Part shown: positions 3,666 to 9,829 of the stretch, piece by piece | How positions within the stretch are numbered: the first letter of the stretch is position 1 | How the letters are laid out: each line of letters opens with the position of its first letter | Translations under genes and position numbers: made by a program | The notes under the pieces: model-generated | Databases searched by the model: none | What the model was told of the DNA's origin: nothing | The model's input: the letters and a program-made list of their open reading frames with translations, nothing else | Origin: Lewinellaceae bacterium | GTDB lineage: Bacteria > Bacteroidota > Bacteroidia > Chitinophagales > Saprospiraceae | Direction: 5' to 3' | Length of the DNA stretch: 32,000 bases | NCBI GenBank assembly: GCA_947476195.1 | Contig: CANJPT010000010.1 | Span: 17,167 to 49,166 of the forward strand

Positions 3666-4031
3666 TTATTTTTTCACCATTTTCAAGACCTCCTTTTGCC
3701 CGCCGCGATTCATTTCAAAATCCAGCGCTACTCCATCGTATTTGAGCAATTTTACAAGGATCTCTTGCTTACCGGTTTCAGTTGTGTAGAGTTTGTCTTT
3801 TTCTGTGCGCCAGGTTCCACTTTGATTTTGGTCGGTAAATTTGGCGGTATAAGTGCCATCTTCATTAAATTCAAACCCAACCTGTGTTGCATCGATGTTA
3901 CTTGGCTTGTCCATAATCAACCACTCCGTCCCCTGCCAATTGCCAAGCAACGCAGGGTTTTTATCGTTGACTTTCTGGCAGGCTAAAATAGTCATAAGTG
4001 CCAGTGCGAAGATTAAGCTATTGATTTTCAT
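3666..4031 (-). CDS. Small lipoprotein, lipocalin-like domain
   Basis: 121 aa. Signal peptide plus lipobox (MKINSLIFALALMTILAC). LLGNWQG...W and a beta-rich pattern are typical of lipocalin-like domain proteins. Its start overlaps the murG stop codon region by 14 nt (4018..4031). Confidence 0.7.
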   Translation of the reverse strand: MKINSLIFALALMTILACQKVNDKNPALLGNWQGTEWLIMDKPSNIDATQVGFEFNEDGTYTAKFTDQNQSGTWRTEKDKLYTTETGKQEILVKLLKYDGVALDFEMNRGGQKEVLKMVKK

Positions 4032-5148
4032 GTTTTAAAACTTTATATGTTAATTTAATGGATTCTCTTGCAATTGCATCTGCTGCATTCGGTCGTCCCA
4101 TCTGCCTTATACTTTCGCTTAGGCTAAAAGCAAGAGCTTCGCTTTCCAGAATCAGCATCGCATCTTGCAATAATTTCTCTCCTGCATCCCCGTCTCTAAC
4201 AAGACGAGCAGCGCCCTTTTCAACCAGTGCGAGTGCGTTTTTCGTCTGATGATCTTCTGCTACATTGGGAGAAGGCACCAGTATAGCTGGTTTTCCAACC
4301 AAACATAATTCACTGATGCTCAGCGCTCCAGCCCTTGAAATCACGACATCCGCCACTGCATAAAGTAAATCCATCCGATCAATGAAGGCAAAGCACCGAA
4401 CATTTGGCAATTTGGCTGTTTCCATCGCCGTGTATTCGTACTCATAAAATTTGCCACACTGCCAAATCACCTGAATACCGCCGTTTTTTTCAAAAAATTC
4501 CACATTATCACGCATCGCATTATTCAAAGTCCTGGCTCCAAGGCTTCCACCTATGACCACGATGGTTTTCTTTTCCGGGTCGAGATCATAGTAATTCAAG
4601 CCTTCCTCACGCTTTCCTTCCAGATGCCGAATGTCTGAGCGAACCGGGTTTCCCGTAAACACAATCTTTTCCTGCGGAAAAAACTGCTCCATATGATCGT
4701 ATGCTACACATACCCGAGCGGCCTTTTTGCCTAAAATTTTGTTGGTCACGCCAGCATAGGAATTCTGCTCCTGGATCAGCGTCGGGATACCAAAGCGCTG
4801 GGCCGCCCGCATGACCGGACCGCTGGCATACCCACCCGTACCGATCACAACATCTGGCTGAAACTTCTTAACAATGCTTTTGGCCTTCCATAAACTCCGG
4901 AGCAGCTTTATCGGGAATGAGAGATTTTTCAAACTCATGCTCCGCTGGAATCCTGCAATGTTCAGTCCCTCTATGGCGTATCCTGCTTTAGGGACGCGCT
5001 CCATTTCCATTTTGCCATGCGCACCTACAAATAAAAATTCGGCATCCGGACGCATCTTTTTTATAGCATCTGCAATGGCAATAGCCGGGAAAACATGCCC
5101 CCCTGTGCCGCCGCCTGTCACTAGTATTTTTAATCTTTGATCGTTCAT
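4018..5148 (-). CDS. murG: Undecaprenyldiphospho-muramoylpentapeptide beta-N-acetylglucosaminyltransferase MurG
   Basis: 376 aa with N-terminal ILVTGGGTGGHVFPAIAIA and GT28 architecture, in the dcw position after ftsW. It ends in TAG. Confidence 0.93.
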   Translation of the reverse strand: MNDQRLKILVTGGGTGGHVFPAIAIADAIKKMRPDAEFLFVGAHGKMEMERVPKAGYAIEGLNIAGFQRSMSLKNLSFPIKLLRSLWKAKSIVKKFQPDVVIGTGGYASGPVMRAAQRFGIPTLIQEQNSYAGVTNKILGKKAARVCVAYDHMEQFFPQEKIVFTGNPVRSDIRHLEGKREEGLNYYDLDPEKKTIVVIGGSLGARTLNNAMRDNVEFFEKNGGIQVIWQCGKFYEYEYTAMETAKLPNVRCFAFIDRMDLLYAVADVVISRAGALSISELCLVGKPAILVPSPNVAEDHQTKNALALVEKGAARLVRDGDAGEKLLQDAMLILESEALAFSLSESIRQMGRPNAADAIARESIKLTYKVLKHENQ

Positions 5149-5150
5149 GT

Positions 5151-5648
5151 TGCAACGCGAATTACGCGGATAGTGCGGATTTATGCAGATTAAATACTCA
5201 AGGTTATTTCGATGTTTGGTCTTTGTTTGCTTGAATTAGCATATCCCTTTCTTAAAAACTCGGGTTTTATTCCAAAATTTAAAACAAGACCAACCTCAAT
5301 TGGCATTGCTCGGAGATAATGAAGTAGCTGGGCTTCATGGGGATCTTCAATTGTTGCTTGCGCTTTCAATTCAAGAATAATCTTCCTTTCTACTACCACA
5401 TCTGCACGATATTTCCCCATCAGCATTCCTTTGTAATAACCCGACATTAGCTTTTCCTCTTCTATTCCCAGGCCCAATTGTCTTAACTCCTAAACTAAAG
5501 ACTTTGGGAAAATTTTTGCCCGAAAGCCGTAATGCAACTAGTTATAGACCTCAAAAAAGGCTTTCAAAATATTATCGGTCAATTCCTTGTGCAGTATTTC
5601 CATAGATTTGCTTTAAGTGTTAAAAAATCCGCGTAAAGCCGTGTTGCA
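5151..5648 (-). mobile_element. Decayed GxxExxY cassette bounded by an imperfect inverted repeat of about 21 nt
   Basis: The arms are 5151..5171 (tgcaacgcgaattacgcggat) and 5627..5648 (atccgcgtaaagccgtgttgca). The reverse complement of the right arm is tgcaacacggctttacgcggat, giving 18 matching positions with one 1-nt indel. The arms abut the murG start (5148) and the ftsW stop (5649), so the cassette fills the whole spacer. Confidence 0.5.
5190..5603 (-). pseudogene. GxxExxY-family (PD-(D/E)XK fold) gene disrupted by two in-frame TAG codons
   Basis: Hand translation from ATG 5603 gives MEILHKELTDNILKAFFEVYN*LHYGFRAKIFPKSLV*ELRQLGLGIEEEKLMSGYYKG...ADVVVERKIILELKA...EAQLLHYLRAMPIEVGLVLNFG. 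The stops are TAG at 5540..5538 and 5492..5490, in the same frame as the 95-aa ORF listed in the track. The signature motif has degraded to GFRAKIF. Confidence 0.8.
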
Positions 5649-6782
5649 CTATTCTAGTGATTCAATATACTTGGAAACACTTAAAATCATTCCCAGTGAG
5701 ATACACGTAAACAACACACTCGTTCCACCCATTGAAACAAGGGGCAAAGTCAATCCAGTGGCTGGCACCAGATTCAGATTTACCGCCATATTGGCAAGTG
5801 CCTGCACCGTCAGCATCAAACTGAGACCTATGGCTAAAAATGCTCCAAACGCCTTGGGACTTTGGGTAACGAGCCGCACATTTCGCAAAAACAGCAGCAC
5901 GTATAATGCTAACACGATCGTTCCACCCACTAATCCATATTCCTCACAGATAATCGCATAAATAAAGTCTGCACTACAATATGGCAGGTAATGTCGCATC
6001 ATAGAATTTCCAGGACCATTCCCAAAAATGCCACCTTTAGCAATGGCAATTTTAGCTTGTTGAACCTGATACCCGCCATCTTCATCATGGAGAAAGGTTT
6101 GAACGCGTTTTTCCCAGGTGTCTACCCTGACCAAATCAAGTTCCGGATAAACCTTACCAATACCAACCAGGATGACAAAAACCAACACCCCTAACATCAT
6201 CATCATGATGATGTATTGTGCACTTACCCGCCCCATGAACATTAATAATATACAGGTGGCGAACAAGATCATAGCCGTACTAAGATTGGAGGGTGCAATA
6301 AGTCCACAAACCAAAACTACCGGTATGATGATTGGAAAAAATGCCTGTCTGAGACTAGTGATATACTCTTGCTTCAATGTCAGAGCCCTTGCCACATAGA
6401 TAATAAGGGCAATTTTTGCCATTTCCGAAGGCTGAAAACTGAAGCCTCCAAAACTTATCCAACGATTTGCATCATTGATATTCGTACCAAAAAAAAGCGT
6501 AAAAATCAATAAAGGGATCGTCAACAATAGAAGTGGACGCGCCAATTGCTGGTATCGCCGATAATGTATCAGGTGACCCAGATAAATAAGAAATAAGCCG
6601 AAGGCCAGTTTTACAATATGCCCCATGATCATACCAGTCGTATTACCCCCATGGGTACGCCAGGCCTCCCAGCCAGAGGAGGAGAACACGGCCAGAATGC
6701 TGAATAAGCTCAGCACGGCCACGATCATCCAGATGGTACGATCGCCCCTAAGTTCTGCTGCTATGCGGTTGCCGAGTGACAT
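5649..6782 (-). CDS. ftsW: Peptidoglycan glycosyltransferase / lipid II flippase-family protein FtsW (SEDS family)
   Basis: 377-aa polytopic membrane protein with FtsW/RodA/SpoVE-like sequence (...LPYCSADFIYAIICEEYGLVGG...TGLTLPLVSMGGTS), located in the dcw cluster. Confidence 0.9.
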   Translation of the reverse strand: MSLGNRIAAELRGDRTIWMIVAVLSLFSILAVFSSSGWEAWRTHGGNTTGMIMGHIVKLAFGLFLIYLGHLIHYRRYQQLARPLLLLTIPLLIFTLFFGTNINDANRWISFGGFSFQPSEMAKIALIIYVARALTLKQEYITSLRQAFFPIIIPVVLVCGLIAPSNLSTAMILFATCILLMFMGRVSAQYIIMMMMLGVLVFVILVGIGKVYPELDLVRVDTWEKRVQTFLHDEDGGYQVQQAKIAIAKGGIFGNGPGNSMMRHYLPYCSADFIYAIICEEYGLVGGTIVLALYVLLFLRNVRLVTQSPKAFGAFLAIGLSLMLTVQALANMAVNLNLVPATGLTLPLVSMGGTSVLFTCISLGMILSVSKYIESLE

Positions 6783-6806: not shown

Positions 6807-7877
6807 TTATTTTTGAGATGCCAGTACTTTTTGATAAAACTCAATGTATTGTTCGGCTGATTTTTCCCAGGTAAACCGGGCTGCCCAAGACTCTATTTTT
6901 TTCCCTTTGCCGGGGTTATTTTCAAACTGTTTCATACCGTTGGCAAAAGCCTCAACTAAAGTGTTTGGTTCAAAATCATTGAAATAATATGCTTCTACGC
7001 CTCCGATCTCCGGAAGGCTAGTTAGCTTTGAAAGAAAAACCGGTTTCCCAAATGACATGGCTTCTATTACCGGCAATCCAAATCCTTCAGAAAGAGAAGG
7101 GAAAAGTAGCGCTGTACAATTCTGGTAGAATTCCATTTTTGCTTCCTCTCCAACCGGACCACAGAATTCGATTCGATCTGCCACGCCAAATCGTGCTGCC
7201 TCTTGTTCAATTTTTGCCTGATATCCGCGACTGTCTGGCCCGGCAATGATCCATTTATAAGCCTTAAATTCAGCCAAAAGCGGCATCAACACGTGATAGT
7301 TCTTCTTCGGATGAATGCCAATTGAAAATAGGAATGGACCTTGGTCCTTAGAGCCCTGAAACTTGCCACCTGGTCCTTGATACTTAAAACTTCCACCATT
7401 ATAGATCACTTGTTCTACTTTTCCCTTTGGGACCTTCAAAAGCTGGTGAACCAAATTCCGCACATATTCAGAGATATACACCAGGCCATTTGCCCGCTTG
7501 ATCTTTTGCTGCATTGCCACCATCCTGTGGCTTTTTTTCGCTTCTGAATAATCCGGGCGTTCCAGAAAATTCAAGTCGTGAATCGTAATCACCAGTGGCG
7601 TTTTACGGCTGCGTGGCATGTATGCTGAATCTTGATGCATACAATGCCAGAGTGACTCGCCAAAATCTGGACCGATGATTTTATGCCAGGGTTTTACCGC
7701 TTTATATTCCATTCCGTTGCCAAACTCCCCCTTGCACGCTGCTGGAACCAGGCAAGCAAAACCCAGGCCTGCATCCGATCCCTCGACTGCAAATGCACGA
7801 CCCAGCTGTAGGCAGTATTGCCCCAGACCGGAGTACGGGTTTCTTAAGCGTTCCATTTCCAGTGCGATGGTTGGCAT
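6807..7877 (-). CDS. Glycosyltransferase, GT4 / Glycos_transf_1 type
   Basis: 356 aa with the C-terminal signature PSLSEGFGLPVIEAMSFGKPVF (EX7E-type motif of retaining GT-B enzymes). It sits between murD and ftsW, where canonical dcw clusters have no gene. Confidence 0.85.
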   Translation of the reverse strand: MPTIALEMERLRNPYSGLGQYCLQLGRAFAVEGSDAGLGFACLVPAACKGEFGNGMEYKAVKPWHKIIGPDFGESLWHCMHQDSAYMPRSRKTPLVITIHDLNFLERPDYSEAKKSHRMVAMQQKIKRANGLVYISEYVRNLVHQLLKVPKGKVEQVIYNGGSFKYQGPGGKFQGSKDQGPFLFSIGIHPKKNYHVLMPLLAEFKAYKWIIAGPDSRGYQAKIEQEAARFGVADRIEFCGPVGEEAKMEFYQNCTALLFPSLSEGFGLPVIEAMSFGKPVFLSKLTSLPEIGGVEAYYFNDFEPNTLVEAFANGMKQFENNPGKGKKIESWAARFTWEKSAEQYIEFYQKVLASQK

Positions 7878-7901: not shown

Positions 7902-8487
7902 TTTTAAAACACTAAGAGACTAAGGGACACTAAGGTTAAGTGGGGTATGAGAGGGGTTTTAGTCCCCATCGGGTAAAACTGAAAAGTATTCATTGACATA
8001 TGGAGTAGTACTTTTTGTGATTTTGTCGGTAAAAAAATTGATCATCAATCCTTTTGGCTTTTTGAGCAACTTCATATAGGACAAGAGTTTGGCAACTTCA
8101 ATTGGGTTGATTTCCTGAACAGCTTTCAATTCTACCACAACACAGTCATCAACCAGTAAATCAAATCTTAATTCTGTTTCCAACTTAATTTCCTTGTACA
8201 ACACGAATACTTTTTGCTGACGCTGCACATCAAATCCTCGCAACTTCAATTCGTATTCCATGCAAGCCTCATAAACCGATTCCAACAAGCCCGGGCCAAA
8301 GGTTTTGTGTACCTCAATTGCACTGGAAATCACATCGAATGCTACCTGATTGACTTCTTTTTTGGTCATGGAATTGAGAATTAGGTTATAGATCTCTTAT
8401 GGTCCAAATCTCTAACCACCTTAAACTGTATCCACCTCTAATACCCCTCTTAACCTTAGTGCCCCTTAGTCTCTTTGTGTTTTAAAA
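7902..8487 (-). mobile_element. GxxExxY cassette bracketed by a 53-nt inverted repeat
   Basis: The left arm is 7902..7954 (ttttaaaacactaagagactaagggacactaaggttaagtggggtatgagagg). The right arm is 8435..8487, whose reverse complement is ttttaaaacacaaagagactaaggggcactaaggttaagaggggtattagagg. Hand alignment gives 49/53 identical positions. A further 10-nt complementary pair lies just outside, at 7889..7898 and 8499..8508. The enclosed ORF runs in the same direction as the operon and looks more AT-rich than its neighbours by eye. Confidence 0.7.
7959..8369 (-). CDS. GxxExxY protein (PD-(D/E)XK nuclease-fold family)
   Basis: 136 aa with GPGLLESVYEACMEYEL (the GxxExxY motif) and DLLVDDCVVVELKA (D...ExK nuclease-fold motif). 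Confidence 0.85.
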   Translation of the reverse strand: MTKKEVNQVAFDVISSAIEVHKTFGPGLLESVYEACMEYELKLRGFDVQRQQKVFVLYKEIKLETELRFDLLVDDCVVVELKAVQEINPIEVAKLLSYMKLLKKPKGLMINFFTDKITKSTTPYVNEYFSVLPDGD

Positions 8488-9829
8488 TGCTTAGCTGTAA
8501 AACCGCTTCCCGAAACTGCTCTCCCCTATCTTCATAATTTTTAAACAAATCAAAACTCGCACAAGCAGGGCTCAACAAAACCATATCTCCCTTTTTCGCA
8601 AAACCAGCAGCCATTTTAACGGCCTCCTGAGCGCTCCCTGTTTCCACGAGTGGCTTCTTCATTCCCCCAAACACACTGATTATCTTTGAATTATCCACAC
8701 CCATGCAAACGATGGCCTTCACCTTGTTCTTTACCAATTTTAAAAGTGGCGTATAATCGTTCCCCTTGTCCTGGCCGCCAACGATCCACACCGTCGGCGT
8801 ATCCATCGCCTGCAAAGCATAGAACACAGAATCCACATTGGTTGCTTTCGAATCGTTGATCCAAATTACACCATTGGTTTCAGCTACTTTTTCCAAGCGG
8901 TGTGGCGGCGGTATAAATGTGTTCAATCCTTCCTGGATCTTATCCGGTTTAGCGCCCAGCAACAGAGATACCCGAATGGCACATACAGCATTAAACATGT
9001 TGTGCGGTCCACGAAGGGCACTTTTTGACATCCCGAAGACCTCTTTTCCAACCTTAATCAGACCGTTTTTGTAGAAGCCTTTTCTGATCGCGATTTGTTT
9101 GGGTTTACTCACCGGGTGACTTGAAGTCACCCGGTGAGTCGCCAGAATCGGATCAAACCCATTGTAAATGAACTTGTCGCCGCGCCCCTGATTCATGGTC
9201 ACCCGAAACTTCGACGCTGCGTAATTTTCCAGTTTGTAATCATAGCGATCCAAATGATCCGGTGTGATGTTCAGCAGCAATGCTATTTTAGGTCGGAACT
9301 GCTGAATATCATCGAGTTGAAAACTTGAAACCTCCAACACGAAAATCCTTTGGTCCGCTTTTGTGCTACCTGTTTTCAGATCTTCCAGTGCCATGCGGGC
9401 AAATGAATTTCCAACATTTCCGCCTTTTCGCACATCCAAACCGGCGGTATTCAAAAGGTGATAGGTCAATTCTGTCGTAGTCGTTTTACCATTTGAACCT
9501 GTAATCGCTACGATCTGACATTTTCCAGCATGCCGATACCCAAATTCAATTTCACCGATCACGTTGATACCTTTTTCACGCACAGCTTTCATCACTTCAC
9601 TTTTTTCCGGAATACCAGGACTTTTAATGATCTCATTGGCATTCAATACCTTATCCAGACAGTGCTGGTTTTCTTCCCATGGAATACCAACTTCATTCAA
9701 TTCTGTTTGAAATGAAGCCTTTATCGCTCCTTTATCAGATACGAATACGTCATAGCCAAGGTATTGGGCCAAAAGGGCCGCACCTGTGCCGGATTCCCCG
9801 GAGCCTAATATGACTATTCTTTTTTTCAT
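8456..9829 (-). CDS. murD: UDP-N-acetylmuramoylalanine--D-glutamate ligase MurD
   Basis: 457 aa with N-terminal IVILGSGESGTGAALLA and the Mur ligase P-loop ITGSNGKTTTTE, in the dcw position after mraY. The last 10 or so codons (8459..8487) lie inside the right arm of the inverted repeat. Confidence 0.92.
   Translation of the reverse strand: MKKRIVILGSGESGTGAALLAQYLGYDVFVSDKGAIKASFQTELNEVGIPWEENQHCLDKVLNANEIIKSPGIPEKSEVMKAVREKGINVIGEIEFGYRHAGKCQIVAITGSNGKTTTTELTYHLLNTAGLDVRKGGNVGNSFARMALEDLKTGSTKADQRIFVLEVSSFQLDDIQQFRPKIALLLNITPDHLDRYDYKLENYAASKFRVTMNQGRGDKFIYNGFDPILATHRVTSSHPVSKPKQIAIRKGFYKNGLIKVGKEVFGMSKSALRGPHNMFNAVCAIRVSLLLGAKPDKIQEGLNTFIPPPHRLEKVAETNGVIWINDSKATNVDSVFYALQAMDTPTVWIVGGQDKGNDYTPLLKLVKNKVKAIVCMGVDNSKIISVFGGMKKPLVETGSAQEAVKMAAGFAKKGDMVLLSPACASFDLFKNYEDRGEQFREAVLQLSILKHKETKGH

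Follow-up and report, generated by a model that had tools for sequence, protein, structure and literature searches.

A decayed GxxExxY cassette between ftsW and murG of a Lewinellaceae bacterium, its intact orthologues and their shared repeat module

Why is the spacer between two genes of an essential operon filled, to the base, by the remains of a small gene framed by inverted repeats? The question is raised by the ftsW-murG junction of a Lewinellaceae bacterium (Saprospiraceae; GenBank assembly GCA_947476195.1), which lies in a 32,000-nucleotide stretch of contig CANJPT010000010.1 (positions 17,167 to 49,166); we call this stretch the window and number positions from its first base. The spacer (5149-5648, minus strand, about 500 bases) is occupied exactly by the remnant of a cassette built around a gene of the GxxExxY family (PF13366/TIGR04256). 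We lean towards reading this cassette as part of a nuclease-plus-cognate-repeat system, akin to RAYT/REPIN and Ssn/NTS, that is extinct in the window genome.

The gene itself is a pseudogene of 137 codons plus stop at 5190..5603, on the minus strand like all features of the locus. Read from 5603 to 5190, its frame translates as MEILHKELTDNILKAFFEVYN, a stop, LHYGFRAKIFPKSLV, a second stop and ELRQ.... With the stops entered as X, its bit scores are 101 for PF13366 (cut-off 22) and 102.7 for TIGR04256 (cut-off 35). It shares 21% identity with an intact GxxExxY cassette at 7959-8369 and hence belongs to another subfamily, referred to here as type A. The two nonsense codons, both TAG, are codon 22 (5538..5540) and codon 38 (5490..5492); a gapless alignment to type A orthologues (the preliminary description had proposed intact paralogues for this check) places them at a Q (CAA/CAG) and a Y (TAT), respectively. 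The family motif, GFRE[KR]IY in 7/7 orthologues, has become GFRAKIF (E29A, Y32F), with GCA (Ala) at 5517..5519 in place of a glutamate that is at least 90% conserved among 68 homologues. In total, ten changes are unique to the window copy at columns invariant in 7/7 orthologues (K11N, Y17F, Q22 to stop, E29A, Y32F, Q33P, I53M, V55G, L69V and K86E). The PD-(D/E)XK core, D68 and E78-L79-K80, is kept, at columns invariant or at least 90% conserved among the 68 homologues. Judged from its sequence, the window copy is thus a family member by descent, but an inactivated one.

The stop codons are genuine. Downstream of them a residual 95-aa open reading frame (ORF) with a TTG start (5190..5477) lacks the N-terminal helices and the motif and has been called as a gene in 52 sample blocks. 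An exact-protein contig look-up of this ORF, which is indexed in those 52 blocks, led to three independent assemblies (ERZ28612946, ERR15302169 and ERR12084917) that all contain both TAGs and the same cassette; two are identical over 2,688 bases, and the third differs at two positions, neither in a TAG. Sequencing error, which the preliminary description had named as a possible refutation, therefore does not account for them. Reassignment of TAG was likewise ruled out, because TAG is also the stop codon of ftsW, and the orthologues have different residues (Q and Y) at the two sites.

The framing repeats had been described as arms of about 21 nt, with sequences unrelated to those of the other cassette in the window. 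Their pairing ends are real: TTACGCGGAT and ATCCGCGTAA form a perfect 10-nt inverted repeat (5162-5171 with 5627-5636), and TGCAAC and GTTGCA stand at the outer arm ends. The true 3' arm, however, is a complete 41-nt four-unit module (5149-5189; GTTGCAACGCGAATTACGCGGATAGTGCGGATTTATGCAGA on the plus strand) with two units mutated, which retains a partner for its outer portion alone; its outer end adjoins the murG start codon (5146..5148). The 5' arm remnant (5627..5648; TGCAACACGGCTTTACGCGGAT, against TGCAACGCGGATTACGCGGAT in orthologues) directly follows the ftsW stop TAG (5649..5651; ftsW matches PF01098 at 6.4e-80) with no base between, and only two units are left in it, the first unit being mutated. 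The 21-22-nt arms thus represent the eroded outermost part of a conserved structure. Nor are they idiosyncratic, for the CGCGGAT-unit module from which they eroded is common to all orthologues and to gene-less hairpins elsewhere.

As the preliminary description had expected, the arms pair in a thermodynamic fold. In the predicted RNA structure of 5140-5660, the arm ends are joined over 6+3+10 bp in both the minimum free energy (MFE) and the centroid structures. When connected by a short linker, the arms reach -25.1 kcal/mol (z = -4.0), a value equalled by 0/200 shuffles; the whole 521-nt region shows no unusual stability against shuffles (z = -0.23), and the terminal stem alone stands out. Arm pairing stops 2 nt short of the murG ATG (5148-5146), and the fold leaves the AUG free and pairs murG positions -3 to -24, in agreement with the suggestion that the 3' arm may sequester the murG start region. 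An Rfam scan of 4900-5900 gave no match at E up to 1, and no sigma-70-like promoter was found in the region.

How old is the cassette? The preliminary description had taken it for an independent insertion into the operon, and this idea did not survive comparison with relatives. A type A cassette that aligns gaplessly to the window copy is present at the same ftsW-murG junction in seven other Saprospiraceae species. Six of these copies are intact (L037/G109, L034/G074, L040/G128, L047/G096, L051/G072 and L055/G057), and the seventh (L067/G097) is independently broken by a TAA at a different codon from the window TAGs. Type A, defined by at least 78% identity, occurs once per genome and at this junction only. 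Nucleotide identities to the window for cassette, ftsW and murG, in that order, are 80/78/77, 83/81/78, 78/79/77, 73/71/71 and 70/63/65%. The divergence of the cassette thus tracks that of its flanking genes, and type A relationships agree with the ftsW tree, which argues for an old and probably vertical inheritance. On this comparison, type A has been located between ftsW and murG since before the divergence of these species. Its distribution on the ftsW tree is scattered and calls either for repeated loss or replacement or for re-introduction. For L037, an import of type A through homologous recombination was dropped as unsupported, as the flanks agree with the host phylogeny all the way to the junction.

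The intact genes are under strong purifying selection. Among them, dN/dS is 0.02-0.05, similar to ftsW, at a dS of about 0.8 to more than 2 (saturated). The window copy shows a dN of 0.107 against L034; L034, L037 and L040 differ among themselves by 0.029-0.037. Unique changes at otherwise invariant columns number 10 in the window copy, 8 in the L067 pseudogene and 0-5 in the intact copies. To judge from these alignments, the window copy is an old resident gene that is selectively maintained in other species and dead here.

The arms share this history. The noncoding flanks of type A genes are inverted arrays of the module TTGCAACGCGGAT-TACGCGGAT-AGTGCGGAT-TTACGCGGAT, tandemly multiplied to varying extent, and the CGGAT cores of its CGCGGAT units are mostly 9-10 nt apart. 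In 8/8 copies the outer arm ends lie within 0-3 nt of the ftsW stop on one side and of the murG ATG on the other. Across five intact carriers, identity in the outer 21 nt is 93-96%, in contrast to 48-50% for the noncoding stretches beside the cassette start and stop; correspondingly, the leader between the 5' arm and the cassette ATG (5604..5626 in the window) is not conserved, with about 50% identity among orthologues. The identity of the arm ends, far above a neutral expectation, persists despite saturated synonymous sites, which shows that their sequence is itself constrained. The number of units varies with the state of the gene. Five intact copies have 3/7, 8/3, 8/6, 5/7 and 5/6 CGCGGA units in their 5'/3' arms; the counts for L040 (G128) are lower bounds, its 5' array being interrupted by a run of N, which may be an assembly gap. 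The pseudogenes have 1/1 (window) and 2/2 (L067). The sixth intact copy, L055, uses a CACGGAT variant (1/0 units by the strict and 3/4 by a relaxed count). In these sequences, arm unit counts thus follow gene integrity.

The module also occurs away from the gene. We counted dispersed copies by the exact 18-mer AACGCGGATTACGCGGAT across 114 genomes of the genus. Only 7/114 contain it at least five times, and five of those seven are intact type A carriers, with totals of 11 (G074), 15 (G109), 15 (G128), 6 (G096) and 21 (G072), of which 9, 11, 9, 2 and 20, respectively, lie outside the genome's own cassette. The remaining two (G064 and G114) encode a related gene of 58-68% identity. The 18-mer is found once in the window genome and not at all in L067, the two pseudogene genomes, and 0-4 times in non-carriers of the same clade. 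In G074, several of the sites are gene-less hairpins of 100-140 nt made of the type A module, starting 0-10 nt from a neighbouring stop or start codon; the two arms of each match one another better than other copies. One such hairpin persists in the window genome beside mutL (C127:1349-1485; TAACGCGGATCACGCGGAT ... ATCCGCGTAATCCGCGTTGCA), as the only exact type A module left there. Its other neighbour is an ORF that we read as a putative efflux-adaptor-like gene, whose TAA overlaps the end of the element. The octamer ACGCGGAT shows no enrichment in the window genome (96 observed against about 122 expected). Arms and hairpins are both depleted where the type A gene is dead.

Looser counts of di-units, allowing one or two mismatches, were discarded as confounded (G102 has 337 and G006 has 119 in the absence of type A), since the units of other GxxExxY subfamilies in the genus are almost the same; for this reason the exact 18-mer was used instead. 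One such subfamily, about 45% identical to type A, is present at L071-L075 (G102, G006, G054 and G053), where it is flanked by long GGAACGCGGATGACGCGGAT arrays; a G-variant di-unit (at most one mismatch) occurs 70-337 times in the genomes concerned. The window genome holds two further structures of this kind. At C21:32100-32185 a near-perfect hairpin of opposite polarity (ATCCGTG...ATCCGCG...GAACACGGATAACGCGGAT), with the 3'-arm type followed by the 5'-arm type, resembles two adjacent elements that lost their cargo. At C2:13900-14241 an intact GxxExxY gene has complete ACAGGAT-unit hairpins on both sides, and ACAGGAT di-units occur 81 times in 35 places; this looks like a live gene-plus-repeat family.

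What kind of protein could connect gene and repeats? A predicted model (68 homologues; pLDDT 89.9, pTM 0.83) has a PD-(D/E)XK core. Its best structural match is Cas4 SSO0001 (PDB 4ic1; Foldseek E 2e-4); also among the best are the Laribacter and lambda exonucleases and MGME1, and further down comes the Holliday junction resolvase Hjc, with TM-scores near 0.5. Profile searches of the cassette protein returned only PF13366 and a weak Pfam Cas_Cas4 match, with no GIY-YIG match and no transposase domain, and a sequence search of the PDB gave no match. Cas4 has a cysteine-bound Fe-S cluster. The cassette protein contains no cysteine at all, and therefore cannot hold a cluster of this type. On the model, the type A protein (about 130 aa) is a minimal PD-(D/E)XK nuclease core, whose motif glutamate is lost in the window copy.

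Taken together, gene, arms and dispersed hairpins share one repeat module, and gene and arm ends are constrained in intact carriers. The protein would recognise the CGCGGAT units of its own arms, as its cognate sites, and of the dispersed hairpins, and bind or cut there. After death of the gene, the repeats would no longer be maintained and would erode. The window species, with two nonsense mutations, the motif Glu and Tyr lost, arms reduced to one imperfect pair and a single gene-less hairpin left, would represent such an end state. On the dcw (division and cell wall) transcript the residual arms would still form a stem that brings the ftsW stop beside the murG start and covers murG -3 to -24; in the window genome it would amount to no more than a passive RNA structure beside the start of murG.

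Several points weigh against a nuclease-plus-cognate-repeat system. That the protein recognises, binds or cuts the units is something we infer from sequence. The association between gene and repeat is based on few, phylogenetically related genomes, and given this relatedness we offer no formal statistical test. Several GxxExxY subfamilies of the genus share CGCGGAT-like units, which confounds counts that allow one mismatch. The intact carrier G057, with its CACGGAT-variant arms, has one exact 18-mer only, and of the four intact GxxExxY genes in the window genome only that on C2 is accompanied by a dispersed repeat family of appreciable size. All carriers have type A at a single fixed site, which gives no sign that the gene itself transposes. 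Vertical inheritance was judged from the flanking genes rather than from a genome-wide species tree. Finally, arm conservation could serve an RNA-level or host function instead of recognition by the cassette protein.

The junction itself has a rich history, which bears on the alternatives. The comparison of empty sites that the preliminary description had called for, made on the ftsW-murG junctions of 69 relatives, points to an ATGA overlap or a short spacer as the ancestral state. The two genes overlap (mostly by ATGA) or lie within 2 nt of each other in 13 genomes, namely 9/10 sampled from other families of the order and four that are basal in the genus. Most spacers in the genus itself measure 11-124 nt, and many are made up of hairpins or short tandem units; a minimal spacer of 29 nt, TCACC[TG]TTCCTAACCTTGGTGACTACAAC, is common to six species. 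Inserts of 370-860 nt occupy 13 of the junctions. In addition to type A, these include type B GxxExxY cassettes (L038 and L004), which have arms of ACGGAT/GGGAC units and do not adjoin the start codon, with solo-arm remnants in L039 and L033, and type C cassettes (L007 and L054) with arms of CACCGAT units. L002 has a gene-less hairpin whose arms are of type C and match L054, with remnants in L032, L036 and L045, and gene-less hairpins of other units are found in L014, L052 and L063. The 372-nt spacer of L008 (G008) contains a truncated ORF (MQHVYAFEKMVAWQIARQ...), which we take, from inspection by eye, for a member of the four-helix-bundle family of proteins encoded by intervening sequences (IVSs) of 23S rRNA genes; it lies between (GGGTTTAGA)n and (TCTAAACCC)n arms, the same arm architecture around unrelated cargo.

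Two further features of the junction concern its variability in relatives. The 450-nt spacer of L064 (G111) holds an unrelated ORF of 139 aa, putatively glyoxalase/VOC-like (vicinal oxygen chelate), without repeat arms. About 7-10 nt upstream of murG, a motif TCACC-TTTCCTAACC-TTGGTGA is conserved in L002, L003, L005, L031-L036, L041-L046 and L048 and absent from all type A carriers; in L002 it has an 11-mer, TAACCTTAGTG, in common with the 3' arm of the other cassette in the window (about 7902-7954), and the motif may represent either a solo arm unit or a leader element of murG.

The main rival to the nuclease-plus-cognate-repeat reading, and one compatible with it, places the function of the arms at the RNA level. 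In this scenario, the cassette would resemble the IVSs of rRNA genes: RNase III would cut the stem and excise the cassette from the dcw mRNA, or the stem would restore ftsW-murG coupling, with the ribosome that finishes ftsW melting the 5' arm and freeing the murG start; arm conservation would then reflect host selection for a working operon. The predicted stem, which joins the ftsW stop to the murG start in MFE and centroid structures and pairs murG -3 to -24, fits this scenario, as do the placement of the arms at stop and ATG in all eight type A copies, the ancestral ATGA overlap with its coupled translation, and the putative 23S-IVS-protein-like remnant between the same kind of arms in L008. 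ORF-bearing 23S IVS elements have also been described as selfish elements (PMC4990558). What makes it unlikely, in our estimate, is that the unit sequence itself, and not complementarity alone, is conserved at 93-96%, although a pure stem would tolerate compensatory change. Moreover, a stem would not require tandem arrays of variable copy number with a periodicity of about 9-10 nt, type B cassettes at this junction lie away from the start codon, the type A module recurs in gene-less hairpins at unrelated junctions, and Rfam offers no match.

A second alternative takes up the claim of the preliminary description that intercistronic spacers are targeted repeatedly: cassettes would actively insert at operon stop/start junctions, and the window copy would be one of several independent hits in the dcw cluster. 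The junction has indeed been reused across the genus, by three GxxExxY types, the four-helix-bundle type and several gene-less hairpins. The close relatives L037, L038 and L002 agree in their flanks at 88-93% identity up to the junction itself, where they have a type A cassette, a type B cassette and a gene-less type C hairpin, respectively. Related subfamilies occur between mraY and murD and, by position, at other dcw junctions, and the gene-less hairpins of G074 also begin at most 10 nt from stop or start codons. Yet the window copy is old and orthologous rather than a fresh event. No target-site duplication is visible, as no direct repeat surrounds the arms (junctions TAG/TGCAAC ... GTTGCAAC/ATG), where a hidden ATGA/TGA duplication is possible. 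Survivorship alone could produce the same pattern if only insertions between genes were tolerated, this junction then being one of few sites at which they persist. We therefore consider repeated site-specific insertion rather improbable as an account of this copy.

It is far less probable still that the arms go back to an older hairpin of the host (a terminator or attenuator) that was split by an ordinary small gene to which they are unrelated. Many relatives do have gene-less hairpins in the spacer (for example L002, L005 and L014), as this idea would predict. Nevertheless, in eight species the arms are conserved along with the type A gene, the hairpins of non-carriers at this site are different from them, and the arm module recurs at other loci; the L002 hairpin, by its match to the type C arms of L054, looks like a gene-less derivative and not a precursor. 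The idea is thus largely refuted. That an ordinary pseudogene is surrounded by complementarity arising by chance, or that the assembly is at fault, is refuted outright by the orthology of the arms across species and the identical sequence in three independent assemblies, even though a perfect 10-nt inverted repeat within 600 nt is by itself only mildly unlikely and the region-wide fold is unexceptional.

The wider locus is a dcw gene cluster. On the minus strand it runs from murD (8456-9829) through the intact GxxExxY gene (7959-8369), a GT4 glycosyltransferase gene (6807-7877) and ftsW (5649-6782) to the cassette, followed by murG (4018-5148), a lipocalin-like lipoprotein gene and murC. In three relatives (L080, L082 and L083; G005, G127 and G048), a GxxExxY subfamily 57-58% identical to type A is located between mraY and murD, with arms GGAACGCGGATGAGGCGGAT...ACGCGGATTTACGCGGAT. 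The dcw cluster of the genus is a host to cassettes at several junctions.

For other folds, the combination of a small nuclease gene with framing hairpin repeats that are also dispersed has already been published. In the REPIN/RAYT system, doublets of REPs (repetitive extragenic palindromes) form hairpins and are associated with a REP-associated tyrosine transposase (Bertels & Rainey, 2011; PMC3116915). Type A resembles it in being a single-copy gene that lies between short repeats of its own, in the occurrence of these repeats elsewhere in extragenic space as hairpin-forming inverted doublets, and in having a repeat population that is present with an intact gene and nearly gone with a dead one. 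In contrast to RAYT, an HUH Y1 (TnpA_REP) transposase, type A has a PD-(D/E)XK fold like that of Cas4 and lambda exonuclease. In addition, its arms are arrays of 7-8-nt units at a spacing of about 9-10 nt with no REP palindrome, its repeats number in the tens and not the hundreds, and its gene lies within an essential operon. The Ssn/NTS system consists of GIY-YIG site-specific single-stranded DNA nucleases flanked by hairpin repeats that they cut (Chenal et al, 2025; PMC11893778). Here the likeness lies in a small stand-alone nuclease gene with its own hairpin-forming repeat on both sides and dispersed in the genome, and in the pairing of different homologues with different repeat variants; the differences are the fold (PD-(D/E)XK versus GIY-YIG cd10448), the multi-unit arrays of type A, and the fact that Ssn is known from biochemical activity and GxxExxY, in this work, from sequence and a model.

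Other known systems are more distant. L008, with its putative IVS-protein-like remnant at ftsW-murG between the same style of arms, recalls 23S IVSs. The ORF-bearing IVSs of 23S rRNA genes, for example in Coxiella burnetii (PMC4990558), are short selfish inserts with a small ORF, whose flanking inverted repeats pair into a stem on the transcript of the host. Type A, unlike these, lies in a dcw mRNA spacer and not in an rRNA helix, its cargo has a nuclease fold, and RNase III processing of its predicted stem is hypothetical. Cas4 and RecB-like nucleases are linked to type A by the SSO0001 and Cas_Cas4 matches, and separated from it by the missing cysteines, a protein of half the size, dcw neighbours in place of a CRISPR context and the TM-scores of about 0.5. 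The lack of a transposase domain and of a visible target-site duplication sets type A apart from insertion sequences and miniature inverted-repeat transposable elements.

PF13366/GxxExxY is a very large family without known function, listed as 'Unknown' in a survey of PD-(D/E)XK proteins (PMC3424549). In a full-text literature search the name turned up in three papers only, one of which uses it just in passing, as a domain call, and we found no paper describing the repeat-framed cassette design for this family. Tentatively, and with less confidence than we place in the reading of the type A locus itself, GxxExxY proteins could be the nuclease part of a third, hitherto undescribed nuclease-plus-cognate-repeat class, beside HUH RAYT/REPIN and GIY-YIG Ssn/NTS. 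Each subfamily would have its own 7-8-nt unit, set at helical spacing in inverted arms, would maintain or spread gene-less hairpins, and would live long at a fixed site under purifying selection, its repeats eroding after gene death.

New here is the series of live and dead copies: eight species with the cassette at the same site, six copies alive and two independently dead, in which arms and hairpins vary with the state of the gene. It leads to a concrete hypothesis, namely that the protein acts on the CGCGGAT module, for which defined substrates (TTGCAACGCGGATTACGCGGATAGTGCGGATTTACGCGGAT) and a natural E-to-A mutant exist. If GxxExxY proteins are sequence-specific nucleases, they might become tools, as Ssn enzymes did. 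If they do form a third class, the type A locus, together with its orthologues, would offer a before-and-after experiment made by nature. The series also shows that cassettes of this sort can reside for long in an essential operon and be maintained there by selection, which bears on a purely selfish view of them.

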